Below are positions 5,396 through 55,256 of a DNA stretch of 64,000 bases, in pieces (the stretch's first letter is position 1; each line of letters starts with the position of its first letter). Where the stretch lies: positions 2,790,001 through 2,854,000 of the forward strand of contig VRMN01000001.1 of assembly GCA_008690995.1 (NCBI GenBank), written 5' to 3'. The notes under the pieces are model-generated. The model was not told where the DNA came from. It did no database searches and worked only from the letters and a program-made list of their open reading frames with translations. This DNA comes from Porphyridium purpureum. Its lineage: Eukaryota. The translations under genes were made by a program, and so were the position numbers.

Positions 5396-7126
5396 CTACT
5401 TACTCGCCGCCAATCGTACTACCGCGATAGAGTACCCGGACGCTAGATCCAACTTTGAGGATGATGAATTCACATACGCATAGACTGTGTCAGTCAGACG
5501 GTTGAGCAATTGTTCACTGTCGCCTGCATTGCTCGGGTTTTCAGACACGAGTCTTTCACACGCCTCGACCGCCATAGACGTGACCTCGTCCATGATACTC
5601 TGCGACTTTGCTGCGACGCCTCGGACACCCAACGCAACAGCATGCCAGTTCGAATCGGATGAGCTTGAAAGCGAACCCAGCAGCTCCGTAATACTTAGAA
5701 CCGTTTCGCGTGTCAGACTGGTGCAGAAAACTCGCACTGCGTTATCAATCACGGAAGTGCCGACTTCCGCGGACGCATGACTTTGCTCGATTTCAGTCTT
5801 GAACGTTTCCCTTTGCTCGTCTGCATACTTCTGCAGCTTTACACAATTCGCATTCGTGCGCATGCACTCAAGAACTTCAGGATCATCGTCTGAAGCCTGG
5901 AATACCATTTCGATTTGCTTCTTCGTCTCATTCATTTTCTCCTAACGCGCTTCATCCCCTTTCACTTCTGCCAATTCGTTCAGCGCTGCATCACTCTGCT
6001 CTTTAAGAGAAGCGATCAGTTCTTTGCCTCCTACGTTGCTGAGCCCCTCTTCAAACAGTGCCTCGGGCGTGTTTTTCTTTGCCTCGTTCCGGTTGGACGT
6101 TTCGGTCTCAATGCGCTGCCTTTCCTCGGCAATTTTTTGATGCACTTCCTCTTCATCGTCATCGCTCTCAACGTAGCCTGTTTCGCTCGCAAAAAAATTC
6201 ACGGCATTGCGGCCGAAACTCTCAAGCGCCTTGCCGATTTTCTTGCCCTCATCTCGCGCCTCCTCTAGTAAGAGTCGTGCATCTTCCGCCAGCGCCTTGC
6301 GCACCTCTTCCGTCATGCTTGTTCCCGCAGAGGACGAAACAGCTTGAATTTCTTGATCACCAGGGACATTCCTGGTCGCTCGTGTGGCTTTATCATTGTC
6401 GCCTTCGGGGTCAGTTTCGTCGTCGACATCATCGCCTTCAACGTCACGAATGGCCTCCATGGTGGCGCTCCACGCATTCGAAAACAAACCTTTGGCCTTA
6501 TTAATATCACCTCGAACCACTGTCATCATATCTACGAGCGGATCATGGTTTTCCTCGGCGACGGCTTCAATCGCGTCGTCACTCGCTCCGGCATTCGCAC
6601 CCGCATTCCTTGAACCAGAAGCGTGATTGGCCACTTTGTTCTCTTCATCAAGCTTGTGCTTTTTCTGATCCATGTGATCCACTGCACCTTCGACCATATG
6701 ATCGAACTTTTCAAGGCCCATTGACAACGTACCCTCTGCGCGTTCCACAAAGGTCGTCAGCCAGTTTCCCCACCCTGGCGCCGCAGGAGCCGTCACACCT
6801 CCGGGGGATGATTCCCCACTGTGCGCTGCCTGGCCTTCATCGACATCTTCCTCTTCTTCTCCACCACCAGAACTGACGGCCCCTTGCCCAGCCTGCTCAT
6901 CCTGCTTCGAGTCGGATGCAACGGCGCCAGCCGGAGCCGCCTGGCCTTCTTCAGCCGAGGGCACCGCTTCCTCCTTCGCATCCGCCGGCGCTTTCGGCAG
7001 CTGATCTCCTTCCTCACCGACTTCCTGCTTCACCTCAGCGGCGCTTCCTCCGTCTGTATCCGCCATCCTGATACTACGCTCTCTGGCGCCTCCCTCTCGT
7101 CTCTCGTCGTTTGCCTTCCCTTTCAA
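5396..7126 (-). CDS. Hypothetical acidic/helical protein (weakly FAM114/DUF719-like) interrupted by one in-frame TAG at 5942-5944
   Basis: ORFs 5942-7126 and 5396-5935 are in the same frame (...CGT TAG GAG AAA ATG...). Acidic low-complexity N-terminus, GWGNW motif and helical C-terminus. The family assignment is tentative. Confidence 0.6.
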
Positions 7127-13088: not shown

Positions 13089-13311
13089 CGGAGGACGCCT
13101 TGCGAGTCATTCGCTACACGCGATGCGTGTTCCTCTGTATCGAAGCTTACCGCAAATTGAAGTACAGTGACATGTCACTGTACACCCAGAACCCAGAACC
13201 GTGCTCGAAGCTGTTCCGGGTGCGCGGCCGCAAAGCTGAGACGCCATGGGCTCGTTCGTCCGCAGCTAGAGTGAGATCCTTGCGTGCAACTTCTCATTCC
13301 ATCCTCCATCT

Positions 13312-16300
13312 TTACTTTAAAAACAAGCGAGGGGCAATGCACATGCTCTCCAGTTCCTGAAACAAAAGCTTGCTCGCATACGGAAGCCATGTCTGCGCAA
13401 TCTTGGTGCGATTGTTGCAACCCCTGCACATGAACACGTTCCGCTGAAGGTCGGCAATCGCAAACAAGCCGCACATTTCGCATACGTGTACGCGGTATGA
13501 GTCTGATTGGTCCATCAGGCGCTCTTTGAGGAAGTGCGCCGCGCCGTGGCTCACCATGCAGTTGCCCATCACCACAGGCATAGACGCCGCCACGACCACA
13601 CGGTGACCTCCGCTGGCTGTGCCCATCGTCGTGTGGCGCACCCAGATCAGCCCATGCGGCACGCTCACACACCACGTCCGACCCGTGTACGAGATTTCCG
13701 CGATGTCGCGCGGGCAATCAATGAGTGGCGCACCCTCTGTATCGTCGCACTTGCCTTGATTCCCGCCGCGACCCAAATCAGACGAACCACTCAGTTCTTC
13801 GGCTTGGTCCAGCGCTCCGTACGTGACTGCCCAGCCTCGCACAATACTGCCCGCATGATACAGGGCACTAAAGCGTGCAGAATATCCCGCGTGAAGCAGT
13901 ACTCGAACGAGGTCGTCGCGGAACAAAACCGACGCAGTGCGAATGGTGCACGGACCGGTACCAGAAGCTCCGTCTGCGCGCTGAAGCCCTCGGATGATGC
14001 AGCGTAACTGCCATTTCTCGAGCGTCCATACCCAGTCTGCGAAGGTCCGACTTGACACTGCCTCGCACGGACCTCCTGTCTGCAAACTAGAACCAAATAG
14101 TTCCGCGTACCGGGTATCGCTGATACAAACGTCAACTCCCTGCATCTGTTCCTTTGACGATCCATTATATTCAGCTGCTAGGGCATCGATCGGTGCAGGC
14201 AGCTTCGTCAGGGTCAAAGCTCCGTTCGCGCACGATGAACCGGTACCAAGGATGTCCAATCCAAGAAGCTGAAGTGTACCAACCAGCCACTGGAGTACCT
14301 TGGCAGTGTCATGCACACCAGAAATCATGGCAGATTCCGAACGCCCTTGGCCACACTTTCCACGTCCAGGATCCACGTTCATCCGGAAAGTGACCACATT
14401 CAAAGTATTTGTGCGACTTCCTCTAGGCTCCCGACAATACTCGCTGCTTGCGTGCACGCCACCATTCAGAAGCCAAAAGCCGTACAGCTCAAGCAGAGCA
14501 CTATGCCTGTCCGCTGAATTGGCAATGAATGCGCTTAGATCGCCTGCCCACTTGGTTGGCATACCAGCCTCCGTTGTCTGCCACTGCTGCACACCCATGC
14601 GCGCGGAGGCAAGCATCTGAACGACCGCGTCGGGTGCAGACGACTTGCCTTGGGCCTTTGCCGCGAGGGTCTGCGCTTGTACCTTTGAGAAGCCAAAGTT
14701 AGGATCGACCGGTTCGGCCTCATCCACATGGGCCGTCCTGACAAATAGATCGTGTCGCCGCGTCACAGCGAATGACACGCCTCCGGGTACGGGTACGGGC
14801 AACGCATCCATGGTGCCTTTACCACCGGAAGCATGATGCTGTGTCACCTGCACAAGGGTTTGCATCTGCGCCGGCTTGACAATCAGTTCCAGCATGTGCT
14901 CATACACAAGCTGCTCAGATTCCGGATCATACGAAGCGATCAACAGGAGCTCAGAACCACGGCTCACGGCATCCTCAATGTCACGCAGAAACATAAATCC
15001 GCGGTGCGTCAGGATTTGGTGATCCTCGCTTAAGCAGTCGCGCTCCATCTCACCAAACCGCAGTCCGCCACCTTTTCCGCGACCTTCAAGCGGTTGGTGG
15101 GTTAGGTTCGTGACGGGCCCAGTCGCGCGGGAGTGAATCTTATCGTCGACCATATGCTTCAGGCGTTGATAGTATGTGGGACCTATGAAAATCTGCGCCT
15201 CAAGCGGGCGCCCACTATGGCCATTGTACATCAATTCCCAGCCGCGCGGCTGGAAACCGTGGCTCTGCAATCGCTGAGAGATTTGGTCGACCGTTATGTC
15301 TGTAAATGGCGTGGCGTCACCCTCAGTGCCTTCCATCGCGGATACCTTGGACAGAAGGCATTCGATCAAATGGCCTACAGTCATACGGGACGGGATCGCG
15401 TGCGGGTTCACAATGATATCTGGTACCACGCCGTCAGCCGTGAAAGGTAAATCTTCCTGCCGGTACATAATCCCGCACGTGCCTTTCTGTCCGTGGCGCG
15501 AGGCAAATTTGTCGCCGACTTGCGGCACGCGCACCGAGCGAAGCCGGATTTTCACAAAACGAGTATTCTCCTTGCTAGACGCAAGCATCACCTTGTCTAC
15601 CATCCCTGACTCTGTGGCTTTGGCGCTCACAGATACATCCTTTTTCCTCTTTCCGCCCTGTCCCCCCAATGGCGATACTTGCACATGGTTCGGAGCCTCA
15701 GAGTCCGGCGTTTCCTTGGCCTGTTGTTGAACCTCGCCTGGTAGGGGTGCCGTCTTGCCCACCAGGATATCACTTCCCTCGATGCGAACACCCTCGGTCA
15801 CCAGTCCGTCTTCTTCGAGCTTACTATAGTTACCGGGCTTGATGCCTATGCACTCTGCACGCTGTGGGACTTCCAGTTTTTCTTCCATCCCACCCAGGCG
15901 GCGTCGTTCTTCCTCAGCAAACGAGCGGAAATACACGGAACGCATAAACCCCCGATCAATGGCGCTCTGATTTAGGATCAGCGAGTCTTCTTGGTTGTAG
16001 CCTGAATAGCACGCGATTGCGGCAATTGCATTGATGCCTGACGGCAACGCGCGAAACTTGAGGTGCTCCATGGCGCGGGTAGTGACCAGCGGTTTCTGAG
16101 GATAGTACAGAACGTGTGCCATAGTATCCATACGCAAGGAAAAATTCGTAATGTAGACGCCCATTGCTTGCTTGCCCATGGCCGACTGGTACGTGTTACG
16201 CGGGGACTGGTTGTGGTCAGGGAACGGAATGATCGACGCACACACGCCCAACACCATGGCTGGGTGAATCTCGCAGTGCGTGTAGAGGTAGGTCGCGCCA

Positions 16301-18483
16301 TTGGCGGCAAGATCTTGAGGACGCATCGCAATCAAACACATCTCCTCTTCCTCACAGTCCACGTATTCAACCAAGCCCGAGTTCAACAACCCGGAAAACG
16401 ACGCGCCCTCGATATCGGCATCATCACTGGTCAACATCTCAATGTGCTGTTTCCTAATCGCCAACCGCGCTCGTCGCATTTGTCGCTCGCTTTCGTCTAC
16501 TCCGCCGTTCATTTTCAAATCGTACTCGTCTGCGACAATGTTGGTTTCGTCTTCACGTTCTACAATGAACAGCGGACGGCAGATGCGGCCCGGATCAGTC
16601 CAAATGCGCAGCTCGTTTCTCTCCTCATCCGCAATGATTGACGTTTCCGGGCGTAGTAACCCTTCGCGGCGCGAATGCCGGAGCGTGCGCAGTGTGTGCC
16701 GAAAGTCGTTATCGCGGCACACACCATGCCATACACCGTTGACAAATACCTTATAACCAGATGTGACCATTTCCGGGCTGTTCAGGTCAACCAAGCTTTC
16801 CACATTGTAATCTTCCAGAAATCCAATCACCGTGGATGACGGTGTGCCGACCGAGATGTACGACATCAGCGCAACATTCTTGACGAGACCGCAAGCCTGG
16901 CCCTCGGGCGTCTCCGCCGGACAGATTACGCCCCAGTGCGTATTATGCAACTGGCGCGGCTTGGCGAGTTTGCCGTCGCGACCGATCGGCGAGTTTAAAC
17001 GCCTCAAGTGCGAAAGAGACGACGCAAAGGTCAGCCGGTTGAGCACTTGCGACACGCCTGTTTTCACGCCTGCCTTGCGGTCTGCATTCCAATTGCCCGT
17101 GGCCAGTGCATACTTGAGACCATTCGTGATAGTCGAGCTTTTGATCGCGCCGCCCTGAACGTTGAGCTCGCGGCCGTTGTTTACCTGGTACTCAAAATGC
17201 CTTTTCGCGTCCTTGACAACCTTACGGAACAGCTGCCGGAAGAGCCCGCCCAACAGCGGGCCTGCAAGGTCCACGCGCTTGTTGCCGTAGTGGTCGCGAT
17301 CATCTGGTGCGCGCCTGTCGAGAATGACTTCGAGGACTCGCTGTACCATGTAGCCCAGAAAGTAGACTTTGGGCAGCTCGCACTGCTCACCTACACCCAT
17401 ATGAGGCAGAAACTCTTTCTGCAAAATATCGCGAGCGTATCGGATGCGTTCCGAGCGCGTCGTTGCGGCTCCACCTGAGGTTGCGCGCCGCCCAATGTAA
17501 TCTAGAGCGAGACGTTCATCCCCGATCATCGAAGCTTCTTCGATGGACGGTTTCAACATATTCATCATGTCATTGTCATCCATGGCGTAGCAGATATACG
17601 ACATCATGTCCGAATCGCTCTTCATGCCCAGAGCTCGAAAGAGAATGGCGATCGGAATGGCTTCACGCACATGAGGCAGCTCGGCCACGATCAACTGTCC
17701 GCCTGTCGAATTCGGCCCGCCGTGTGTGTTGATCACCTTGACGACAAATGTGGTAGCCGGACGATTACCCGCCTCCGAAACTGAGCGGATCTCTGCCGTG
17801 TATGTGAAGCGGCCCGGCTGCAGTTGCTTCTTAAACACAAACACGTGGTTCTGTGCCATTCGTTCCTGTGCTAAAAGTACCTTCTCGCTGCCATTGATGA
17901 TGAAGTAGCCACCCTGGTCGACAGGGCACTCGCCAAGCTTGCACAGGTCGTCTGGTCCTACGCCATCAAGGATGCAGAAGCGACTCTTTAGCATGATCGG
18001 GATGTGTCCCAGAAAAACCTTGACCTCCAGGTCGTGCTCTTCGTATTCATCCCCATTGCTATGAGTTGTAATTATCGACTTTTTCACGTCGACGTAAAGA
18101 GGCGCGGCGTACACGAGATTTCGAAGCCGAGCCTGCGTCGGGAACAGTGGCCGCATTTCACCATTCGGCTCTGTAAACCCGGTCTTGCCTAGGCGCAGTT
18201 GGCCAAACTCAACGAGGTACCGCGTATCCTCCTTCACGTCCTGTTGGCCAGGAAGATGCTGCGACTCTGGATAGATAACGATCGGTAGCGACTCGTCGAC
18301 GATCTGCTGCATCATGTTCGACACAAACTCGTTGAACGAGTCAATTTGCTGACGAACCAGGCCATACTCTTGAAAGTACGATGAGATGACGATCCACGCG
18401 TCATTCTCATCAATATCCAAATCCTCAACAGGCTCTGCGATTTCAGCCTGCAGCTCTTCCGGCTCATACTCGCTCTTGTCCAT
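13312..18483 (-). CDS. RPB2: DNA-directed RNA polymerase II second-largest subunit, precursor containing a 492-aa intein (spliced product about 1231 aa)
   Basis: Pol II RPB2 motifs GYFIINGSEKV, DDRDHYGNKRVDLAGPL, CPAETPEGQACGLVKN, PFPDHNQSPRNTYQSAMGKQ, YSGYNQEDS, GDKFASRHGQKG, GLRFGEMERD and the C-terminal CxxC..CxxC zinc site. Confidence 0.99.
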   Translation of the reverse strand: MDKSEYEPEELQAEIAEPVEDLDIDENDAWIVISSYFQEYGLVRQQIDSFNEFVSNMMQQIVDESLPIVIYPESQHLPGQQDVKEDTRYLVEFGQLRLGKTGFTEPNGEMRPLFPTQARLRNLVYAAPLYVDVKKSIITTHSNGDEYEEHDLEVKVFLGHIPIMLKSRFCILDGVGPDDLCKLGECPVDQGGYFIINGSEKVLLAQERMAQNHVFVFKKQLQPGRFTYTAEIRSVSEAGNRPATTFVVKVINTHGGPNSTGGQLIVAELPHVREAIPIAILFRALGMKSDSDMMSYICYAMDDNDMMNMLKPSIEEASMIGDERLALDYIGRRATSGGAATTRSERIRYARDILQKEFLPHMGVGEQCELPKVYFLGYMVQRVLEVILDRRAPDDRDHYGNKRVDLAGPLLGGLFRQLFRKVVKDAKRHFEYQVNNGRELNVQGGAIKSSTITNGLKYALATGNWNADRKAGVKTGVSQVLNRLTFASSLSHLRRLNSPIGRDGKLAKPRQLHNTHWGVICPAETPEGQACGLVKNVALMSYISVGTPSSTVIGFLEDYNVESLVDLNSPEMVTSGYKVFVNGVWHGVCRDNDFRHTLRTLRHSRREGLLRPETSIIADEERNELRIWTDPGRICRPLFIVEREDETNIVADEYDLKMNGGVDESERQMRRARLAIRKQHIEMLTSDDADIEGASFSGLLNSGLVEYVDCEEEEMCLIAMRPQDLAANGATYLYTHCEIHPAMVLGVCASIIPFPDHNQSPRNTYQSAMGKQAMGVYITNFSLRMDTMAHVLYYPQKPLVTTRAMEHLKFRALPSGINAIAAIACYSGYNQEDSLILNQSAIDRGFMRSVYFRSFAEEERRRLGGMEEKLEVPQRAECIGIKPGNYSKLEEDGLVTEGVRIEGSDILVGKTAPLPGEVQQQAKETPDSEAPNHVQVSPLGGQGGKRKKDVSVSAKATESGMVDKVMLASSKENTRFVKIRLRSVRVPQVGDKFASRHGQKGTCGIMYRQEDLPFTADGVVPDIIVNPHAIPSRMTVGHLIECLLSKVSAMEGTEGDATPFTDITVDQISQRLQSHGFQPRGWELMYNGHSGRPLEAQIFIGPTYYQRLKHMVDDKIHSRATGPVTNLTHQPLEGRGKGGGLRFGEMERDCLSEDHQILTHRGFMFLRDIEDAVSRGSELLLIASYDPESEQLVYEHMLELIVKPAQMQTLVQVTQHHASGGKGTMDALPVPVPGGVSFAVTRRHDLFVRTAHVDEAEPVDPNFGFSKVQAQTLAAKAQGKSSAPDAVVQMLASARMGVQQWQTTEAGMPTKWAGDLSAFIANSADRHSALLELYGFWLLNGGVHASSEYCREPRGSRTNTLNVVTFRMNVDPGRGKCGQGRSESAMISGVHDTAKVLQWLVGTLQLLGLDILGTGSSCANGALTLTKLPAPIDALAAEYNGSSKEQMQGVDVCISDTRYAELFGSSLQTGGPCEAVSSRTFADWVWTLEKWQLRCIIRGLQRADGASGTGPCTIRTASVLFRDDLVRVLLHAGYSARFSALYHAGSIVRGWAVTYGALDQAEELSGSSDLGRGGNQGKCDDTEGAPLIDCPRDIAEISYTGRTWCVSVPHGLIWVRHTTMGTASGGHRVVVAASMPVVMGNCMVSHGAAHFLKERLMDQSDSYRVHVCEMCGLFAIADLQRNVFMCRGCNNRTKIAQTWLPYASKLLFQELESMCIAPRLFLK
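13561..15036 (-). mobile_element. Intein (protein-splicing element) with LAGLIDADG-type homing-endonuclease region, in RPB2
   Basis: Splits GEMERD|CMVSHG. Block A CLSEDHQILTHRG, block B VTRRHDLFV, block C-like LLELYGFWLLNGG, block E IIRGLQRADG, block H TASVLFRDDLVRVLLHAGY, block F YTGRTWCVSVPHG, block G VVMGN followed by extein Cys+1. Length 1476 nt = 492 codons (precursor residues 1150-1641). Confidence 0.97.
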
Positions 18484-19133
18484 GACTGAGATTGTCTTTC
18501 ACTGCCCTGTTTCCTTTCCGGTCAGTGATCAGTCAAAACCCCGCGTTGTCCTCGCGCTTATACCCGCGTCCAGTCGTCAGCCGTGTCAATCAATCCCTCG
18601 TGTCCGCCATATATGTGCATATAGATGTATGTATGTGTACACCGCGGCGCTTCTCTCTGCCGCGTACCTACTATACAACAAACCAAAACGCGAGTCGCCC
18701 TCGCCCTACCTTCCCTACAAAAAGACTAAACCAATCAACCAACACCCGACCACCAACCGACAGCGCGACGCCGAGTGGGCGTGCGGGGAAACACGGGATT
18801 CGCAGAGGGGCGCAACTACTGTACAGGCAGACGCATTCTGCGCCCGACCAGGACCACCCCTCTTGCTGCACACGATCCGCGATCGTGTCCGGTCAAACCA
18901 CACACACACGCGCACACGCCCTTCCTCTTCCCGCCTTGTCACTGTGTCACCATACGTCGCGGCCGTGTTCGGTTTATCCATCTTTTTTTCGGCGCCTGCG
19001 AGGAACATACTAAAACGGGGCTGTTTGTATATGAACTTGGCATTTTTGAACCATTAAGCCGGTAAGCTGAGTGGAGCAGAACGCGCGTGTTGGTGGGTGG
19101 GTGGTGGATGGGGCGGCGATCGGGCTAGACGAT

Positions 19134-26633: not shown

Positions 26634-28850
26634 CTAAAAGGGCCGAGTGGCGCCGTGTGGCTTGTCGACTGGATATGGCCCAATGCCATTCGATGGCGGC
26701 ATACCCGTGGGCACGCTCATATCCCCAAAGCCCATTTGCCTGCCACTCACAACGGAGGGCATCCTTTCAGGACCCTGCGGATCACTTGGCCGTGGCGGCG
26801 GCCAAGCCAAATATGGGGCTCGTCCAAAGTCGTGCGGCATCGGACTCTGCATCTCAACACCAAAGCCAGCTGGCGTAGGTCCACGATGCTGCGTAAATTC
26901 GCCATACTCGCGACCGCCGGGGGGCATCCCTGGTATACCCATCGGATACGGCATCTGCATTACGTGTGGAGGCTGTCCGGGCATTGGCTTGTCTCCCGGA
27001 AAAGACCCTCCCGCGCCAGACGGTAATGGCGGTGGACCTACGTACCAACCGTTTCCCATACCATGCGGCGGGCCCGGTGGTGGACCTGGTGGCTGCCCCA
27101 TATGTGCCTGGCCCGCAACATGCTCAAGGCTTCCTCCCCCAGTGCCTTGAAACATACCAAAAAAGGCTTCGGCAGAAAATCGCTGTGGTTGCACGACACC
27201 CATTTCAACCGCTGGAGCAACTGCTGGAGAAACATCTCCGGCGCTTGTTGCTGCTGACTGCTGAGGATACTGGTGGAGCGCTGCGCGCGGATACACATGG
27301 GCGGGTTGCTGCTGATGCTGATCGTGATAATGATGATATTGCTGTTGTTGCTCAGTATTTGGAATACTTGGCACCTTGCGCATCATATCATGCACTGAAA
27401 CCGCCAGATCGAACTCGACATTCGCGTCACCGTTACTAATATTCTTTGGCTTTGGAGCACTTCCTTCTGAACGACCTTGTTCGTCTGTCCCTGAAATCTC
27501 GACGTGGGTCTTTTTCGCCGGAGTAGCCAATACCGGCGGTCCTTTGGGCTCCTGTGCTGCCGCCTGTGCCTTCACTTGATTGAAAAAGCTCAGAACATTT
27601 GGTGCTAACCCTTCGCTGGCCAGTGACGTGCTGCCCAGCGGCGCTGTTGGCGCTGGTGCGATGCCACTTGCTTCGCCACCCACCTTCGCGCTCTCTTCTG
27701 CGGGAGCAGGATTCGTGAACCACCTTCCAAAGCCTCGCGAAGTCACTCGATCCACGTCTTCCCCAATCGAGATGTCAGAGGTCGACTGTCCTCCCGCAGC
27801 CATCCCCAAAAAGATCGACATGTCAAGCGCAGGCTCCGTATGCGGGGGCAGCAAGCTCTCGACAGCAGGATGCATGCTGGCATGTATACCTGCCAAATTT
27901 CCGCAATCCGCAGCGGCGCGTCCAACTTTGCGGACATAAGGGATCGGATCCCGGCGCTTCCGTGTCTCAAAGCCTCCTTTCGAGCACGGACCGCGCGCAA
28001 ACCGCACAAACTCGTTACTCTTGAGCATGGTGTCGGGAGAAGGCGACCGCATCACGCGAGGCGGCTTTGGCGAAGCAGAGGGGCCGCGCATTGCTTCGGC
28101 GCGAGCATTAATGGGCCGTGCCGCTTCCACGCCATTAGAGCCTTTCCCACTTGCCATTTGAGTCACTTTGGCCTCAAACCCGGGACGCACAAACTCCCGC
28201 GCTGGATCACGCCGATTCAGCGGCTTCTTACCCCAAGCCGAGTCCGGCTCTAGCGAGTCGTCGAGCCCTCCAATACCTTCCTCGTATAGTCCTCCCGTAT
28301 TGCCTTCCAAGGCACCATCCAAAAGCGGATGCGAACGAAGCCACGAGTCGTCCAGGGGAACTAATTCAGGGACGCCCCTGATCTCTGCCTCAATCCCACC
28401 GCTGCCGCCATCTCGGCCGGCGTACCCGCTTCCCATCCTCGGAGATGTTTCGAACCTGCCAGATTCGTGCTCAGGTATGGAATCGTCCCCCACGCCTGCA
28501 AGGCGTTGTGACCAATTAAAGCGTGCTTGCGGGTCATAGGCACCGGAATTCACCACGTCGTGCAGTGTATCCGGCGCCGTGGGCACCAGATGTTGAATCT
28601 GGAGAATGTAGTCAAATGCGTACCGGCGCCGGGGTTTGCCCTGACTCGAGTATAACACTGACGTCGCGTAATTTGCGCCTGATCCTTCAAGCGCCGATGC
28701 GTCTACGGTGGAGAAGCCTGGCGGCGCGGCGCGAAAGTAGGGCATCTGGCCTACCTGCACTGCGTGGATGGGCGGAAGATTGCCATTATCAGCGCCACCG
28801 CCTACATTCTGGCTGTTTCCCCCTCTCAGAGCTGCGAGCAATTCTTCCAT
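26634..28850 (-). CDS. Long disordered Pro/Gly/Gln-rich protein; candidate eIF4E-binding protein (4E-T-like)
   Basis: Long open frame. N-terminal RRRYAFDYIL resembles YxxxxLphi; internal SRGFGRWFTNP motif; P/G/Q-rich C-terminus. The function is inferred. Confidence 0.75.
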   Translation of the reverse strand: MEELLAALRGGNSQNVGGGADNGNLPPIHAVQVGQMPYFRAAPPGFSTVDASALEGSGANYATSVLYSSQGKPRRRYAFDYILQIQHLVPTAPDTLHDVVNSGAYDPQARFNWSQRLAGVGDDSIPEHESGRFETSPRMGSGYAGRDGGSGGIEAEIRGVPELVPLDDSWLRSHPLLDGALEGNTGGLYEEGIGGLDDSLEPDSAWGKKPLNRRDPAREFVRPGFEAKVTQMASGKGSNGVEAARPINARAEAMRGPSASPKPPRVMRSPSPDTMLKSNEFVRFARGPCSKGGFETRKRRDPIPYVRKVGRAAADCGNLAGIHASMHPAVESLLPPHTEPALDMSIFLGMAAGGQSTSDISIGEDVDRVTSRGFGRWFTNPAPAEESAKVGGEASGIAPAPTAPLGSTSLASEGLAPNVLSFFNQVKAQAAAQEPKGPPVLATPAKKTHVEISGTDEQGRSEGSAPKPKNISNGDANVEFDLAVSVHDMMRKVPSIPNTEQQQQYHHYHDQHQQQPAHVYPRAALHQYPQQSAATSAGDVSPAVAPAVEMGVVQPQRFSAEAFFGMFQGTGGGSLEHVAGQAHMGQPPGPPPGPPHGMGNGWYVGPPPLPSGAGGSFPGDKPMPGQPPHVMQMPYPMGIPGMPPGGREYGEFTQHRGPTPAGFGVEMQSPMPHDFGRAPYLAWPPPRPSDPQGPERMPSVVSGRQMGFGDMSVPTGMPPSNGIGPYPVDKPHGATRPF

Positions 28851-31013: not shown

Positions 31014-33941
31014 ATGCAAGCGGCTCGGCGGCGCGAGATGGCGACCGGCGAGTCCACGGCCGCGGAGGAGTGGGTCGCCATGTGGCCGGACGTGCAGCAG
31101 TTCCTGGAGGAACTGAGCGTCGTGGTGCTCTACGAGTCGGCGCGCACGCGAGGCACGGAGGCAGAGATGCGCGTCGATATCAAGACAATCAAGCGCCTGC
31201 GTGCGCAGGACCAAGAGCTCCAGGAGCTCGAGAGCAAGTCGCCCCACAACAAGGCGAGTGTGGGTGTGGGTGGTCGTGCGCTCACAATGTTGAGAGCATT
31301 CGCGCTGATGCTCGTTCAGAGCCAGAGCACCAGTCTCTACGCGCGGGTACTGGAGAAGATGCGGAACGTATTCGGCGACCCCGCCGCAACGGTAGCGCGG
31401 CACACAGTCAGTTTGGTGTTCTTGCATGAGTTCATTTTTTTCGCGTTGTTTGTAGACATAGCGGCTAACCCGGACACCTTACTCTTTCAACCGTGCGACA
31501 ATCGAAATGGGTTTGTCTCGGTCAAGAGTCTGCATGATGCGCAGAATTCAATCATTTCTGAGAGGACGGAGGTCGGGCTTCGCACCGTAAAGGAGGCGGT
31601 CGATGACTATCAAGACGAGGTGGAGGAATGGGTCGTCAAGCACAACGAGGACTGGAGTGGCGGACGTCAAGCAGCAAATAGGAAATGCTTGGATGCCGTC
31701 GCATCTAGCGCAATCGTTTCTGCAGTGTGCAAAACGGGGTTTTTGCCACATCTCGTGGCAAATGAGCTCGCGTCGTTCTACGTGGCGAGCATCGTGAAGA
31801 ATCTTGCGTTCTACGCGCCGCTGAAATCACCCCTTTTTGTGGCAAAGGGCTTGCATCTGCTCGCGGCGCTCATGCGCGAACATCCAGACGCTCTGCTACT
31901 GCAGGAACTGTGTCTCAAGGCATTTTACGTATTTTCTTTTCACGACGAATCATTGCAGCGCTCTCAGTGCATTGTGCGACGGAGAGTTCCGGAACTGGCG
32001 GTCACGGCCATGCGCAAGGCCCTTTCCTTTAAGCACCTGACATACCAGTGTCTTCATTTTCTCACGCGGTGTCTGGACTTGCGTTTATCTAGCAAGCACT
32101 TTGGAGATCGGGACCACTCGCTAATCACTTTGGTGCTGAACGCTCTGCGGGAGTACCAGTCTGACGCCAAGATCCGCGAGGCGGCGCTCGAGTTGCTTGT
32201 TCTCCTCACGCGTCCATCGAAATCTTCCCGGAATCGCACTCAAGCCCTTCAGGCTTTCACATCTTCCACTGACGGCGAGGGTGTCTCTCTGGTGCTTCAA
32301 TGCATTCGGATCGGTGCAACACAACAACCAGAGGTAGTGTTGAGCGGATGGATACTTCTGCGCATGTGTGCGCGATATGCGAAGGACGACTTTGTCCGTG
32401 AGCTGGCGAGTACCAAGAACAAAGGTATGGACTTGATTTGTAGCTCGGCTGTGGAAAGCTTGAAACTTGCTTTCGAGCCGGGATCTCGCACGGTCGAAAG
32501 AATCAACTACGACATTGTGTCTGCCATCATTCGTATCTTGCAGTACGTTTCGCTAAGCGAGGTTTTTCGTGACCTCATTCGCTCTCGATTGGAGGTATTC
32601 TGTATGCTTCAATGCAGTCTCGCAACTGTGACGGATCGTCTAGGGCAGGCATCATTGATCGAATCGGATGTTAGGAAAACTATGGACCTGGCTGCCTTCT
32701 GCTGCATTGCGGTGGGCAATTTGTGCCATGAGTGCGAGCAGCTTCGCGCCCAAGCCACCAAACTTGGCCTGCTTGATGCGAGTCTGACTCTCCTTGCCAC
32801 TCTTTTGGAGAACCTTCCAGATGCACGGCGTGTACGAGATGAGTTTGAAAAAGCGGGGCTCATCGGCAAGCATGAGGACTCTTGGCAGCAAAGACAGGGG
32901 GAGAGCCCGGCGCAAGGATCGATGTTTGCGGAAAGTGCCGAGTCTGTTGGGTACGCGTTGCGAGCTGTTCGACAAATGATTTCCTCCGGCAGACCAGGAA
33001 GTCTTGTAGAACCTGCACTTACCCTTGCTCTTCCTTCAGGTAAAAGTGACGAAGACGGAGAGGAATATGGCACGATTCGACCAGAGGCGCTGAGCTACGT
33101 ACTTGTTTCGCTTCGAACGTTTAAGCGAAACATTCGCGTATGGCAGCATGGGGTTGGTATTCTGCTCAAAATTTGCCTTGCTCCGTCGAGTGATGCGAAG
33201 CAGTGGCTGGCTGAGAACAGCGACTTTATAGAGGAGACGCTTTCCTTCTTGGCAGTGGAGGGTTCCTCTCGAGAATTTCAGATTCCGGTGACATTTTTGG
33301 AGAGCCCAGGTTCAAGGGTCAGCAGTGCTCAGACGGATGCAGAAGAGGTAGAGCAGCAGCATCAGGAGCAGGAGAGGCGCATGAAGTCTCTGGAGCGTGA
33401 CATAGAAAGCCTGAGGAGCTGGCTGAAGAAGCAGACCGGGTCAAGCGACTGCCGAAGTTCGTCAGCTGCTCTTCAATCCCATACGGCCCGAAGTCTGACC
33501 ATGCATGATGAATCAGTCCATGCATTCACTTCGGCAATGACACCATCTCCTGCATTTTCACTTCGACCGTCCACAGAATTTGAGTCAAGCCTGGTTCTTA
33601 ATCCGAGTTCCCACGCTGGAGACGGACAGAAAAATTCGACTGCGGCCTTGAAGTCATCTACACCATTCTCGGGTAGCGGACAAGATCGGATTAACAACGT
33701 CCGCTCGCTGGGTGATGTTCTCGAAAGCAGTGAAAGTGCTCGTCAGGCAAAACTCACCCCACGCGCGTTCGCACGATCTCAAACTCAAGTTCCCAAACAG
33801 CACAAGAAAGGATTTCGCCGTTTTCGGTCTTCAGCAGACACCCAAGGAACCGATTCAGGCAACAGTCTTTCCAATAGCCCTGCTTCAGGGCTTTGGAAGC
33901 GGCGCCCGCTTTTGAAAAAGCCGGCGTCATCGGTGCAGTGA
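31014..33941 (+). CDS. Large alpha-helical (ARM-repeat-like) protein
   Basis: About 975-aa open frame with repeated units such as GLHLLAALMREHPD..LQELCL and LVLNALREYQSD..IREAAL, followed by a disordered Ser-rich tail. Confidence 0.8.
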   Translation: MQAARRREMATGESTAAEEWVAMWPDVQQFLEELSVVVLYESARTRGTEAEMRVDIKTIKRLRAQDQELQELESKSPHNKASVGVGGRALTMLRAFALMLVQSQSTSLYARVLEKMRNVFGDPAATVARHTVSLVFLHEFIFFALFVDIAANPDTLLFQPCDNRNGFVSVKSLHDAQNSIISERTEVGLRTVKEAVDDYQDEVEEWVVKHNEDWSGGRQAANRKCLDAVASSAIVSAVCKTGFLPHLVANELASFYVASIVKNLAFYAPLKSPLFVAKGLHLLAALMREHPDALLLQELCLKAFYVFSFHDESLQRSQCIVRRRVPELAVTAMRKALSFKHLTYQCLHFLTRCLDLRLSSKHFGDRDHSLITLVLNALREYQSDAKIREAALELLVLLTRPSKSSRNRTQALQAFTSSTDGEGVSLVLQCIRIGATQQPEVVLSGWILLRMCARYAKDDFVRELASTKNKGMDLICSSAVESLKLAFEPGSRTVERINYDIVSAIIRILQYVSLSEVFRDLIRSRLEVFCMLQCSLATVTDRLGQASLIESDVRKTMDLAAFCCIAVGNLCHECEQLRAQATKLGLLDASLTLLATLLENLPDARRVRDEFEKAGLIGKHEDSWQQRQGESPAQGSMFAESAESVGYALRAVRQMISSGRPGSLVEPALTLALPSGKSDEDGEEYGTIRPEALSYVLVSLRTFKRNIRVWQHGVGILLKICLAPSSDAKQWLAENSDFIEETLSFLAVEGSSREFQIPVTFLESPGSRVSSAQTDAEEVEQQHQEQERRMKSLERDIESLRSWLKKQTGSSDCRSSSAALQSHTARSLTMHDESVHAFTSAMTPSPAFSLRPSTEFESSLVLNPSSHAGDGQKNSTAALKSSTPFSGSGQDRINNVRSLGDVLESSESARQAKLTPRAFARSQTQVPKQHKKGFRRFRSSADTQGTDSGNSLSNSPASGLWKRRPLLKKPASSVQ

Positions 33942-38277: not shown

Positions 38278-39381
38278 ATGCCTTTCTTGGAGTTCGCGTT
38301 CGGCGCGGCTGCGGCCTGCAGAGCTTGGCGCTGTCGGCGGTACTGGGAAATGCGAAGCTGGCTGCGTCGGCACCCAAGATGGCGGCGGGCATATGCGCGA
38401 TGGCGTCTGCACCGGCTGGACTGGACGATGCTTCACGCGCCGTACCGACCACCCAAGGAGTACGAGTACATCTTCGAGGAGGAACGCATCTTCAAGCCCG
38501 AGCATCGCGTTTGGGAACTGCCGTGGGACTTGATCAAGCTGGACCCAAAGACACGACGCGAAGAAATGATCCTTGCGGCCAGGCTCTGGGCTCATGGATG
38601 GCTTGCTTTCTTTCGACGGAAGGACCCCGCAGAATATTCACCCCTGTGGAGGGAGGTCGCGGCGCAGGAGGAGCAGATTAGACTTCGAAAGGCGGGCAAA
38701 TTGATTGAGCAGATCGAAGAGTTTCGAGAGATTTCTGCAGACGCGACTCGCGATCTGGAAGACGAGCTGCTGAGAACAACCAAGGGCATGAAATCTGTGA
38801 AACGTTCTTCGCTGCAGGAAGAAGCCGCTAGTGTACTGAGCTCGCGCGCGTCCGTGCTCCAGGAGGCCACACGCTCGTTCGTGCTAGGATATAGGGAAGG
38901 GGTCAAACTGCAAGATGAAAGACGCGACCAGGACATGGAATTTTTATTCAAAACGCAGACGGAGTTTGTTGAGAATGCCAAACAGGCATATGCGAGTTTT
39001 CGCGAGGAAGCAACAGGCTCGACGGGCAGACAACAGCCTGGCGCTGCTTTCACCGCCGATGAGAAGGCAGCTGGCTCACCATTCCGTGAAGTGCCGCGAT
39101 GGGGTGCCCGGAATGATCAGGCGGGAAGCGTTTCTGCACCGCAGCAATCTGCAAAAGTTGGGGCTGACCACGAACCGGATTCACAACAAGGGCACAACCG
39201 TCGACCAGTGGAATCGGTCGAGAAAGCGGGCACTATTCTGAAAGGACTTCGCACCAGATGGAAGCAATTCCTAGCCGATGACGGGGATGAGACGACGACG
39301 TCTAAGCAGGACGACAAGTCAGACGGCCAACCAGCTGCATGGTTTCGGGAGCGCCGATCATCAGGCGATCCTCATCAGTAA
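38278..39381 (+). CDS. Hypothetical protein (367 aa)
   Basis: Long ATG-initiated ORF with an R/W-rich N-terminus and a helical middle; no family recognised. Confidence 0.7.
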   Translation: MPFLEFAFGAAAACRAWRCRRYWEMRSWLRRHPRWRRAYARWRLHRLDWTMLHAPYRPPKEYEYIFEEERIFKPEHRVWELPWDLIKLDPKTRREEMILAARLWAHGWLAFFRRKDPAEYSPLWREVAAQEEQIRLRKAGKLIEQIEEFREISADATRDLEDELLRTTKGMKSVKRSSLQEEAASVLSSRASVLQEATRSFVLGYREGVKLQDERRDQDMEFLFKTQTEFVENAKQAYASFREEATGSTGRQQPGAAFTADEKAAGSPFREVPRWGARNDQAGSVSAPQQSAKVGADHEPDSQQGHNRRPVESVEKAGTILKGLRTRWKQFLADDGDETTTSKQDDKSDGQPAAWFRERRSSGDPHQ

Positions 39382-39407: not shown

Positions 39408-40421
39408 TTACCAGTCGATGAGACCTCGCGCCTTGCCGTCTTCCATGTAGTCTGTCAGCATCGGAACAGGGCTCTCAAGCCCTTTTGCTTTGGCCAATTC
39501 AGCGAAGCCATAGAAAAATCCGCAGCGCAGATCAAAATCCTCGCGGACATCTGCCTTGACGTGGGCCATAGTCGCGGCATACAGGCACGCTCGATCCGCC
39601 GTACCGTGGAGAAGCGATACGGCGAGACCAAAGCGGATAAACCGGGCAAGCTCGTAAGTCAAATCCTCTAGCTCATCACGATGTTGCGCCGCAGTTTCTG
39701 ACAGCGAAAGACCGCCATGCACACTGCCGATCAAATGCAGCGCACTCAGCCATACCAATTTCTCAAAGTACCCGCGCCGATAAGCCTGAGAGAATACCAC
39801 GCTGCACTTGAGCTCTGCTCGTTCGATGCGCTCAGCAAACGCAGTTGCCCACTTGCCCGTCACCAATGTCAAGCCATCATCTTCATCGGCGGCGTCCTCC
39901 GCAACCATCTCTCTGGGCTTTCCGCCCAAACGCGGAATACAAAAGCACAGATGCGCTCTCGTATTGTCTTGCAAGCCAAGTCGGCGAAAGAGCGATTCAA
40001 CGGCGCCCTCTTGCACCAGCACGAGGTCCTCGAGTTTGGATTCCGGGCAAGCACTTACAACAGTCTCCAGTTGCGCCGCAGGTACGCATGCATACACTGG
40101 CCCAGGATGATCAGGCGGAATCAGCCCGCCCTTCGGTAGGACGAGGTCGTCGCCACGACCTACGTTCGCCAAAAATGTACCCAGTCGGCCAGACCCTACA
40201 ATGACGCTTGCCTGGTCACGCAACCGCTCCACGTCTTCAGGCTTCCTGTTCAAGGACTCAAAGTACTCGAGCAGCGGACGAGAATCGCTGTAGCCTTGCA
40301 TACACGGGCCGACACGGCGCCGGGCAACATGCTGCACATTGACTGCCACCGCTCGGCGTTCCTGCAATGACGACGTACGAAATGTGAACGCACCGCCGGC
40401 GCAGCTGATGAATCCCGCCAT
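39408..40421 (-). CDS. Conserved algal/plant Rossmann-fold protein (ketopantoate-reductase-like fold), probably plastid-targeted
   Basis: VIVGSGRLG, GPVYACV, DLVLVQEG, GKWA.AFAERI and EKLVWLSA..L.G. Transit-peptide-like start MAGFISC. Confidence 0.8.
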   Translation of the reverse strand: MAGFISCAGGAFTFRTSSLQERRAVAVNVQHVARRRVGPCMQGYSDSRPLLEYFESLNRKPEDVERLRDQASVIVGSGRLGTFLANVGRGDDLVLPKGGLIPPDHPGPVYACVPAAQLETVVSACPESKLEDLVLVQEGAVESLFRRLGLQDNTRAHLCFCIPRLGGKPREMVAEDAADEDDGLTLVTGKWATAFAERIERAELKCSVVFSQAYRRGYFEKLVWLSALHLIGSVHGGLSLSETAAQHRDELEDLTYELARFIRFGLAVSLLHGTADRACLYAATMAHVKADVREDFDLRCGFFYGFAELAKAKGLESPVPMLTDYMEDGKARGLIDW

Positions 40422-53365: not shown

Positions 53366-54761
53366 CCCTTTTCCCTTCCTCTTTCCGCTCGTCGTCCTCC
53401 TCGCGCCGTGGTGAGCTTTCTTGCCACTGCCTCAGCCACCACCTGCAGTCGCGACACGCTATATGCGACCCACTCCGCGCACCCGTCGTTCTCGCGCACG
53501 TCGAGACCATTCTTCGCACGCACTTGACCTGGGGCAGCACTCTAACAAGCCGGACGAAACCAGCATTGTCTGTGCCGGCACACCGAGAAGATATCGGAGC
53601 GTTCGATGACGCAAGCGCGCGAGCGATGACTCATCGCGTCGTCGAACGTGCGCATCGATTCCATCCACAACCTTCCAGTACCACCAGCCTTACAAAGTGG
53701 TCACCCCCCAAAATGGAAAATCATCACGAATCCCGATGCACCCGTGGCGTGAGCGTAATCACAAAAAGCGTCCGGAAACGGCAACAAGGGAAAAATCGGT
53801 TCGGCTTAGGGAGTTGACGGAATGGGCTTGGAGTGACCGTGGTCCTTTTGTCAGTGTTTGAGCCGCGCCTCGTGAATCAACGTGGGACGGAATGAGTCAC
53901 CTCAAACCATGTGGCGAGAGTGCGTGCCATGCGATGTGCAGAGGATGTGTAGCATGAGATGCAGTCTTGATTCCTGCGCAGGGTACTTACCGGACGGGTG
54001 GCTGGGCGGATCATGTACAAAGATCTTGCGACAATCGTCATTCAGGTAAGGAGTCCCGACATTCAAGGGCAAGGAGGGAGCGAGGGCTGTAGGTCGGTGG
54101 TGGCGGTAAAAAAATGCGGAACTGGCGCGTGCACAAGCGCGCGGTTCGCTGCGACCTGTGCCTGTGTCCTTCACTACAACAACAGAAATCACGCCGCGAT
54201 CCAGTTAACCAGTCCATCAGCGCCGAAAGCTCGGCTCGCCATGTGATGAAAAAACCGCACCCAGAAGGAGGTTCACCGAGCAGTTCTCGAGACCACGACT
54301 CTGGGCTTTTGCGCGAACGAGCAGCCGCAGCCACCGACCCCGTTTTGGACGAGCGCCAGCAGCCGCACCGCTCTTCTCGTTCCAACTTGAGACCATTGAC
54401 AGGCCCGCGCCACGCATTCGTTTTCGAAGATCGTGCGCTGAGCGGCATACAGCCTGACTGCTGCTTTCCACGCGCCGCGAAAGAGTGCTCTTCTTCCGCG
54501 CGCCCATGTCGGTGTGCCGCGCTTGGACGCAGCTGCGCGCTCGAGCCATGGAACCGAGACTTGTCGGGGTGTACAGCAGCCACAAGAAAACCAAAGTACA
54601 GTTCGCCCGTAGCTGTTCCTATAAAAGCAGGCGGTTTTAGTATGAAAAGTACAGTGCGTGTGGACGATTCGTTGGCAGCGCGGAAGGTCGAGGCGGAGTG
54701 AAGGAGGCGATGCGCGGTGGGATAGAACGGCACAGAAGGTTGAGATAGTGACATCACGAGT

Positions 54762-55256
54762 ATGCCGGACGCGGTGTCAGATATTGCACGGCCCGCGCCG
54801 CTCGCGACGTCGTCGGTTCTGTACGCGGCGTCCAAGTATATTGGGATCCTGTGCCGCGGCGAGAACGTGTCGTACCTCGAGTGCAAGGCGGAGCACGCCA
54901 ACCCCGCGGACTGTTTGGATCGCGGCGCCAAAGTGCAGAGCTGCGTCGCCGACGTGCTCGCCGCGCTCGCAAGCACGTGCCCAGAGTCTTTTACCCAGTA
55001 TGCTAAATGTATCGAGGACGAGCCCATGGAGGAGTACGCGTTCCATGAGTGCCGATCGCGTGAAACAGTTTTGTCCAAGTGCGCCGTGCCGGCCCTAAAG
55101 ATCAAGGAGGTGTACGCTGAACTGGAGGCTGCTCATGCAGCTGCCGTGGAGGCTTCTGCAGCCGCAGAGACACAGACAGCCGGCGGATCCGCCGCTTCAG
55201 AAGGCGCTCCTGCTTCTTCCGTATCGGCCGCCGCAGCGTCTCCATCCGAAAGGTGA
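54762..55256 (+). CDS. NDUFA8: Mitochondrial complex I subunit NDUFA8 (CX9C protein)
   Basis: TSSVLYAASKYIG..C...N...L.CK....NP..CL..G..V..C, with repeated CX9C spacing. Confidence 0.9.
   Translation: MPDAVSDIARPAPLATSSVLYAASKYIGILCRGENVSYLECKAEHANPADCLDRGAKVQSCVADVLAALASTCPESFTQYAKCIEDEPMEEYAFHECRSRETVLSKCAVPALKIKEVYAELEAAHAAAVEASAAAETQTAGGSAASEGAPASSVSAAAASPSER

Follow-up and report, generated by a model that had tools for sequence, protein, structure and literature searches.

An intein of RPB2 termed RPB2-a has been catalogued since 2006, when Goodwin et al. described it from Chlamydomonas reinhardtii (Cre RPB2-a); it is located in the anchor domain, follows the site RPB2-b by 32 alignment columns, and displays the ends Cys...Gly-Asn/Cys, where the slash marks the junction with the extein (PMC1635734). 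Inteins of Trichosporon and of dictyostelids were listed at the same RPB2 bond by Green et al. in 2018, in whose table all of the red-algal inteins (45/45) are plastid DnaB inteins (PMC5784728), in agreement with the first-pass annotation of the present DNA. Supplements 2 and 4 of the latter paper give the C. reinhardtii RPB2 intein a chloroplast prefix, while Goodwin et al. call the same intein nuclear. Red algae go unmentioned in the main text of the more recent survey by Gallot-Lavallee et al. in 2023 (PMC10710043), and a nuclear red-algal intein was not found in the literature consulted, which lay outside InBase, subscription journals, the supplementary datasets of PMC10710043 and parts of PMC1635734. 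With the element described herein, a nuclear intein has apparently been seen in red algae for the first time; what is new about it is the host lineage and the occupancy of one site by two lineages, the allele and the family being known. The RPB2 protein carrying the insert is present in NCBI nr, UniRef and EukProt, and may therefore be a node in the network of PMC10710043.

The window, namely the whole stretch of 64,000 nt of Porphyridium purpureum DNA that was analysed, contains an RPB2 gene whose features are collected in the table below. A stop-free insert of 492 codons lies in frame in this gene (GEMERD/C...GN/C, with the extein +1 Cys codon at 13558-13560 on the minus strand), and all seven Rpb2 domains of Pfam were found in the ORF, of which domain 7 (Rpb2_7) is split in two by the insert. 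The length of RPB2 and the single in-frame insert reported by the first-pass annotation were confirmed, and the Cys start, TRRH, TWCVSVP, the Gly-Asn end and the extein Cys were all located in the translation. The C-extein is the part which we take to contain the zinc-binding clamp region. Among 119 RPB2 homologues the insertion bond is empty in 113, occupied by a different intein in three, and without the motif in the remaining three. The base composition of the insert is host-like, with a GC3 of 0.59 as compared with 0.54-0.60 in seven of eight neighbouring ORFs, and the neighbourhood consists of dense, ordinary eukaryotic genes, no viral-looking ORF being seen near RPB2 among the 29 ORFs of the window that were scanned. 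Several long ORFs of the window are blank in Pfam, located at 26634-28850 (-), 31014-33941 (+), 5942-7066 (-), 38278-39381 (+), 39408-40421 (-) and 54038-55027 (-). A second, empty RPB2 copy may exist elsewhere in the genome, the scope here being the 64,000-nt window.

Table. Features of the intein-bearing RPB2 gene, in positions of the window
Feature	Position	Strand	Basis
RPB2 precursor ORF, 1723 aa, intronless	13312..18483	-	ORF and Pfam scan; one RNA-seq contig covers the whole ORF gap-free
N-extein, RPB2 residues 1-1149, C-terminal end GLRFGEMERD	15037..18483	-	71% identity to, and grouping with, Porphyridium aerugineum RPB2
Predicted intein, 492 aa, Gly-Asn-ending family of Cre RPB2-a and Candida ThrRS	13561..15036	-	sequence family, fold, profile
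N-terminal Hint half, about residues 1-125 (approximate boundary); Cys1 at 15034-15036	14662..15036	-	part retained in same-site mini-inteins
Block B, T92-x-x-H95 (TRRH)	14752..14763	-	His in 129/129 and Thr in 124/129 family rows
Linker and LAGLIDADG-type endonuclease region, about residues 126-440, degenerate	13717..14661	-	missing from mini-inteins; I-DmoI structure matches; 14/16 replacement SNPs
Block C helix, Leu-Asn for family Gly-Asp; N191 at 14464-14466	14458..14490	-	alignment with relatives
Block E helix, aspartate D355 kept	13969..13998	-	alignment with relatives
C-terminal Hint half, about residues 441-492; block F Trp-Cys at 13669-13674; terminal Gly-Asn at 13561-13566	13561..13716	-	family alignment
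C-extein, 82 aa and stop; +1 Cys equals yeast Rpb2 C1137	13312..13560	-	alignment to yeast Rpb2

The profile check for Hint and LAGLIDADG domains proposed in the first-pass annotation would have misled, since at E up to 1 neither Pfam nor NCBIfam matches the insert with any Hint, intein or LAGLIDADG model. A first search with the insert, by contrast with these profiles, matched 25 other proteins, and in 17 of these the match sits at the same bond, in an RNA polymerase subunit; a wider search returned 558 cluster representatives (E up to 0.001), 150 of them listed. Among these listed matches 138 copies possess both ends, and 129 were retained for the family alignment. A profile made from 128 relatives, with the query left out, gives the insert a score of E 1.6e-92 and has no other match in the six-frame translation of the window. 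No match was obtained in the PDB by a sequence search with a 53-row profile of the insert, in a phage collection by tblastn, or in a scan of prokaryote genomes, which as a search with one single motif pattern is weak; the ESM Atlas yielded only generic intein and LAGLIDADG clusters (0.90-0.94). The AlphaFold model of the insert, calculated from the 53-row alignment (pLDDT 80.6, pTM 0.86), is matched end to end by known inteins in Foldseek (E 2e-9 to 4e-6), with TliVMA as the best (E 2e-9), followed by PI-SceI and PI-PfuI. It superposes on the TliVMA intein 7qsu with Z 20.6 and rmsd 5.2 over 331 aligned residues, and on the mini-intein 7oec with Z 16.5 and rmsd 2.1 over 148.

The insert is accordingly recognized as an intein because of its family-profile score and its predicted Hint and LAGLIDADG fold, despite the silence of Pfam and NCBIfam. 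Its assignment to class 1, judged from sequence and model, relies on Cys1, Thr92 and His95 of block B, the terminal Asn492, the +1 Cys, and a Hint fold formed from both ends in the predicted structure. A penultimate His is usual for class 1 inteins, although it is not obligatory. The insert carries Gly instead, which the first-pass annotation had called non-canonical: the residue is indeed not His, but Gly is ordinary within the family (118/129 relatives) and was also stated for Cre RPB2, and an intein with penultimate Gly and full splicing is on record (PMC5050341). Block F contains Cys456, which is found in all 129 family rows, at a position where most inteins carry Asp. A class 3 intein, to which this Cys could have pointed, was ruled out, as Cys1 is present, whereas class 3 has no nucleophile at that position, and as the F4 Cys is accompanied by B12 Leu and G5 Met in place of the Trp and Thr of the class 3 Trp-Cys-Thr triplet. 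Position 468 is His in the insert and Arg in 127/129 relatives, while the adjoining Arg467 is kept.

The identity of the site can be derived from the offset between the two described RPB2 insertions. RPB2-b is followed by SRARG, the matching Ser of which sits 32 residues before the insertion bond in the present gene; since this coincides with the offset of 32 columns, the bond is, by this indirect route, the RPB2-a site. Moreover, 36 of the first 64 residues are identical between Cre RPB2-a (sequence from PMC5784728) and the insert when counted by eye, and this comparison places the insert in the same sequence lineage. The novelty of the allele that the first-pass annotation had thought possible is thereby withdrawn, under the condition which that annotation had itself set, namely an allele already in the catalogues.

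Removal of the insert at the RNA level was another reading to be considered, together with a faulty assembly or a pseudogenic copy of the gene, as Pfam gives no intein match and the copy number is seen from one window only. A single contig of the RNA-seq run X19 spans 13293-18800 with no gap or joint across the insert, contigs of X20 bridge both intein junctions, and no joint or indel at the insert was seen in the contigs (as distinct from raw reads) of eight of the 24 runs listed. The insert ends in TG..AC rather than GT..AG, and a spliceosomal intron was ruled out by these ends and by the presence of the insert in RNA-seq contigs. The RNA check called for by the first-pass annotation thus came out in favour of retention. 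With an open frame, an intein fold, contiguous RNA and DNA contigs from several studies, and exteins under strong purifying selection, the probability left to an intron, an artefact or a pseudogene is next to negligible. The RNA contigs end just beyond the stop codon, where the DNA run X12 continues, which is a weak hint that they represent transcripts. At 15036-15069, a contig of X10 and X16 with 34 matching junction bases reads as an RPC2-like paralogue, in which the site is empty and Ser stands at +1.

The host lineage was examined with an N-extein tree of 50 sequences, in which the gene, the RPB2 of Porphyridium aerugineum and an empty relative (P0176) are grouped with support 1.0 within a red-algal clade; the N-extein is 71% identical to that of P. 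aerugineum and 74% to that of P0176, and the branching order among the three has a support of 0.49. The claim that the intein sits in a nuclear red-algal RPB2 is supported. Among the related red algae, for which a survey of empty alleles had been proposed, the close relative P0176 does have an empty bond, whereas P. aerugineum holds an unrelated intein there instead.

The transcriptome-derived RPB2 of P. aerugineum (P0177) possesses at the identical bond an intein of 524 aa (residues 1123-1646) that ends in His-Asn. Its alignment with the insert scores 46 (z 1.7), below the best shuffle, in contrast with z 81-98 for viral same-site alleles against the insert. A kinship at the profile level was rejected, the signal having come from extein columns, with only the generic blocks A, B and C aligning at 16%. 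The P. aerugineum intein is 51-53% identical to the RPB2 inteins of Capsaspora and Trichosporon at that bond (support 100/100), while the RPB2 exteins in this comparison are 55-58% identical. As the intein identity nearly equals that of the exteins even though blocks C and E are both decayed in the P. aerugineum copy, horizontal movement of this intein is argued for. A site occupied by one lineage would not be convertible by the other, so that the simplest history would comprise two separate gains. In one virus-like RPO2 (P0312), a His-Asn-type intein at the RPB2 bond seemingly starts with Ala rather than Cys.

The endonuclease of the insert bears several marks of decay. In intact alleles block C has the sequence GDG and block E the sequence ADG, and the insert has Leu-Asn-Gly in the former with the latter preserved; it therefore keeps only the second of the two acidic residues, both of which are found in eight of the 17 other full-length same-site copies, and seven same-site mini-inteins have no endonuclease domain at all. 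The KSAKWF and HKY stretches, which are conserved in intact alleles, are eroded. Polymorphism was read from 45 coding SNPs pooled from eight runs, which were chosen as insert holders and whose strains may be non-independent, with one UTR SNP and one SNP outside the gene omitted. The insert displays 16 replacement and 12 silent changes as against 1 and 16 in the exteins (Fisher p 5e-4), with a pN/pS of 0.46 versus 0.02, and 14 of its 16 replacement SNPs fall in residues 126-440, none of them at a catalytic residue. At 14232-14236, in a low-confidence loop of the endonuclease region, runs X19, X20, X10 and X16 share four linked substitutions within five bases.

Blocks C and E hold acidic catalytic residues whose loss inactivated PhoVMA (PMC8966425). 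The replacement of the block C Asp by Asn and the relaxed polymorphism make it likely, from sequence, that the endonuclease of the insert is dead; the first-pass annotation had called the intein full-length, which is correct in terms of size only, since the block C aspartate is gone and endonuclease activity probably with it. An intein that splices and still homes among strains with an active endonuclease, perhaps a nickase acting through block E, is decidedly improbable: D355 and the fold are kept, no stop or frameshift was seen in the insert among the contigs of the eight runs, and a pN/pS of 0.46 stays below 1, but Leu-Asn stands for Gly-Asp in block C, the two stretches are eroded, the loss of acidic residues has the precedent of PhoVMA, and such residual constraint may be structural. 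The contigs of the eight runs contain no empty allele, which also speaks against ongoing homing, although it is not evidence of fixation because all of these runs were chosen as insert holders.

The link to giant viruses that the first-pass annotation had raised was corroborated by the same allele in viral genomes. The Gly-Asn allele occurs at the RPB2 bond in three giant-virus MAG loci, which were found with an 8-row alignment as the query, and one of them (L001) has both endonuclease motifs intact. The His-Asn type occupies this bond in 23 viral loci with nine distinct starts, the eight complete ones having intact motifs. Among the 120 viral loci listed, 102 are empty, 17 are His-Asn-like (one by pattern and 16 by eye), and one is of the Gly-Asn type, a rarity that counts against the history proposed below. 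Giant-virus-like RPO2 genes of 1900-2500 aa (L001 3177-9677, P0007, P0015 and P0079) contain several inteins of different lineages per gene.

In splicing-domain trees, which like all trees here lack the C. reinhardtii intein, the insert falls among same-site, mostly virus-like copies, with good support in FastTree (0.97) and weak support in IQ-TREE (82.6/56). In whole-intein trees the long branch of the insert is drawn to other decayed copies, and on account of this long-branch attraction they were left out of the donor claim. The intein phylogeny suggested by the first-pass annotation does not fix the donor. The nearest relatives reside in virus-like RPO2, whose viral status rests on the tree position beside GVMAG copies and whose exteins are only 41-45% identical to the RPB2 here. 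A eukaryotic donor is possible as well, because a green-algal-like RPC2 cluster (P0010, P0295, P0297 and P0298) carries the allele, with the paralogous bond occupied or empty and block C reading Asn.

That the insert is an old relic, inherited vertically by green and red algae alike and thus allelic with Cre RPB2-a, and lost from most lineages without any viral or horizontal step, is improbable. Such a relic would agree with the shared family and site (36/64 N-terminal residues, by eye), with the host-like base composition, and with the argument of Goodwin et al. for ancient eukaryotic inteins (PMC1635734). Precise loss would be required, however, in nearly all algae and plants (113/119 empty), plus a replacement in P. 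aerugineum, and the closest sequences lie in virus-like RPO2 with exteins so dissimilar; an identity of 30-37% would hardly be kept by a decayed endonuclease for that long.

The wider Gly-Asn family is distributed over many hosts. Among the matches listed (P0014-P0173, alignment A1), 125 copies have both flanks, and a rough greedy rule sorts these into about 67 flank clusters. The hosts include protein kinases (10 of the 53 scanned), dual-specificity phosphatases (five), in which the catalytic Cys is the +1 residue, EF-Tu of Coemansia, dynein, HECT, UPF1, tRNA synthetases, zinc fingers, MCM, RecQ and PolB. Most of these hosts come without taxonomy, and the wide host range is put forward as a lead. 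Promiscuous, virus-linked intein clusters are known from Anaeramoeba, and kinase, phosphatase and elongation factor hosts are unnamed in the main text of that study (PMC10710043). Pfam mostly misses the family, only four of the 53 matching LAGLIDADG_3, and with NCBIfam missing it too, eukaryotic intein counts are likely too low. The Gly-Asn intein in EF-Tu of several Coemansia species occurs in full-length and shortened forms (P0034, P0107, P0303 and P0317), and some Coemansia EF-Tu records are labelled threonyl-tRNA synthetase, probably owing to the intein. In P0071, one intein copy is followed by residues that resemble the beginning of a second, which may reflect a tandem or nested insertion.

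Taken together, it is highly probable that the insert, with its class 1 intein fold and motifs and its retention in RNA, excises itself from the RPB2 precursor, that its endonuclease is dead, and that it was acquired long ago through horizontal homing, out of a pool in which giant viruses share. Self-excision is suggested by the combination of fold, catalytic motifs and RNA retention, and from intein biochemistry it would proceed by an N-S shift at Cys1, transfer to the +1 Cys, cyclisation of Asn492 without a penultimate His, and a final S-N shift. This would yield an RPB2 of 1231 aa in which the D-C bond of the anchor region is the native one, and on which Pol II would depend. As to history, an empty ancestral site would have been invaded separately by the Gly-Asn lineage in this alga and by the His-Asn lineage in P. 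aerugineum, from a virus or another eukaryote as donor, whereupon each intein would have been fixed and its endonuclease would have decayed. Domestication as a conditional redox or metal switch controlling Pol II assembly is very improbable; three active-site cysteines (Cys1, Cys456 of block F and the +1 Cys) and an intein at the bond in both Porphyridium species could be read that way, but Cys456 recurs in 129/129 relatives from unrelated hosts, the inteins of the two species are unrelated, and a close relative is empty.

A broader reading, which we hold to be somewhat favoured, is that two unrelated intein lineages compete for the RPB2 D/C bond as a homing site, both being maintained in giant viruses with live endonucleases and passing from there into nuclear genomes. 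Each of them would have struck the same algal genus once, giving the first red-algal nuclear inteins and a natural experiment in mutual exclusion, with the Gly-Asn lineage as an unusually promiscuous, Pfam-invisible one at about 67 sites including kinases, catalytic cysteines of phosphatases, and EF-Tu. Nuclear inteins would thereby be extended to the Rhodophyta, surveys having listed only plastid DnaB for red algae. Inteins that share a site are as a rule each other's nearest kin; the two Porphyridium species, whose inteins at one bond are unrelated, depart from this rule and provide a clear example of a site invaded more than once, for which candidate viral reservoirs have been identified. 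The insert represents no new mechanism; the host is of a culturable type, which would allow an in vivo test of whether an essential subunit of Pol II is spliced when the penultimate His is missing.

Compared with known systems, the insert shares with Cre RPB2-a the host subunit, the bond, the Cys...Gly-Asn/Cys ends and the sequence family, and differs in its red-algal instead of green-algal host, its 492 instead of 431 aa, and the loss of the block C aspartate that is present in Cre RPB2-a. The Candida ThrRS inteins and the Capsaspora Prp8-F intein, as given in PMC5784728, belong to the same Gly-Asn family by motifs compared by eye, in non-allelic hosts. The His-Asn RPB2 inteins of Trichosporon asahii, Dictyostelium lacteum and Polysphondylium pallidum listed by Green et al., together with that of Capsaspora, occupy the same bond, but form a separate lineage that is not alignable with the insert and to which the P. 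aerugineum copy belongs. Giant-virus RNA polymerase inteins (EhV, Megavirus, CroV, BsV and the Anaeramoeba network clusters of PMC10710043) resemble the case at hand in that RPB2 inteins are common to virus and eukaryote and in their promiscuous non-allelic spread, whereas the six viral Rpb2 rows of Green et al. represent other sites or other families. Unrelated inteins at one site have, in the literature cited for these giant-virus inteins, been raised as only one of two possibilities. PhoVMA, TliVMA and PI-SceI have Hint and two LAGLIDADG helices in common with the insert and, at 9-15% identity, are structural analogues only; PhoVMA is the tested example of endonuclease decay, and the insert fits the decay stage of the homing cycle set out in PMC8966425.
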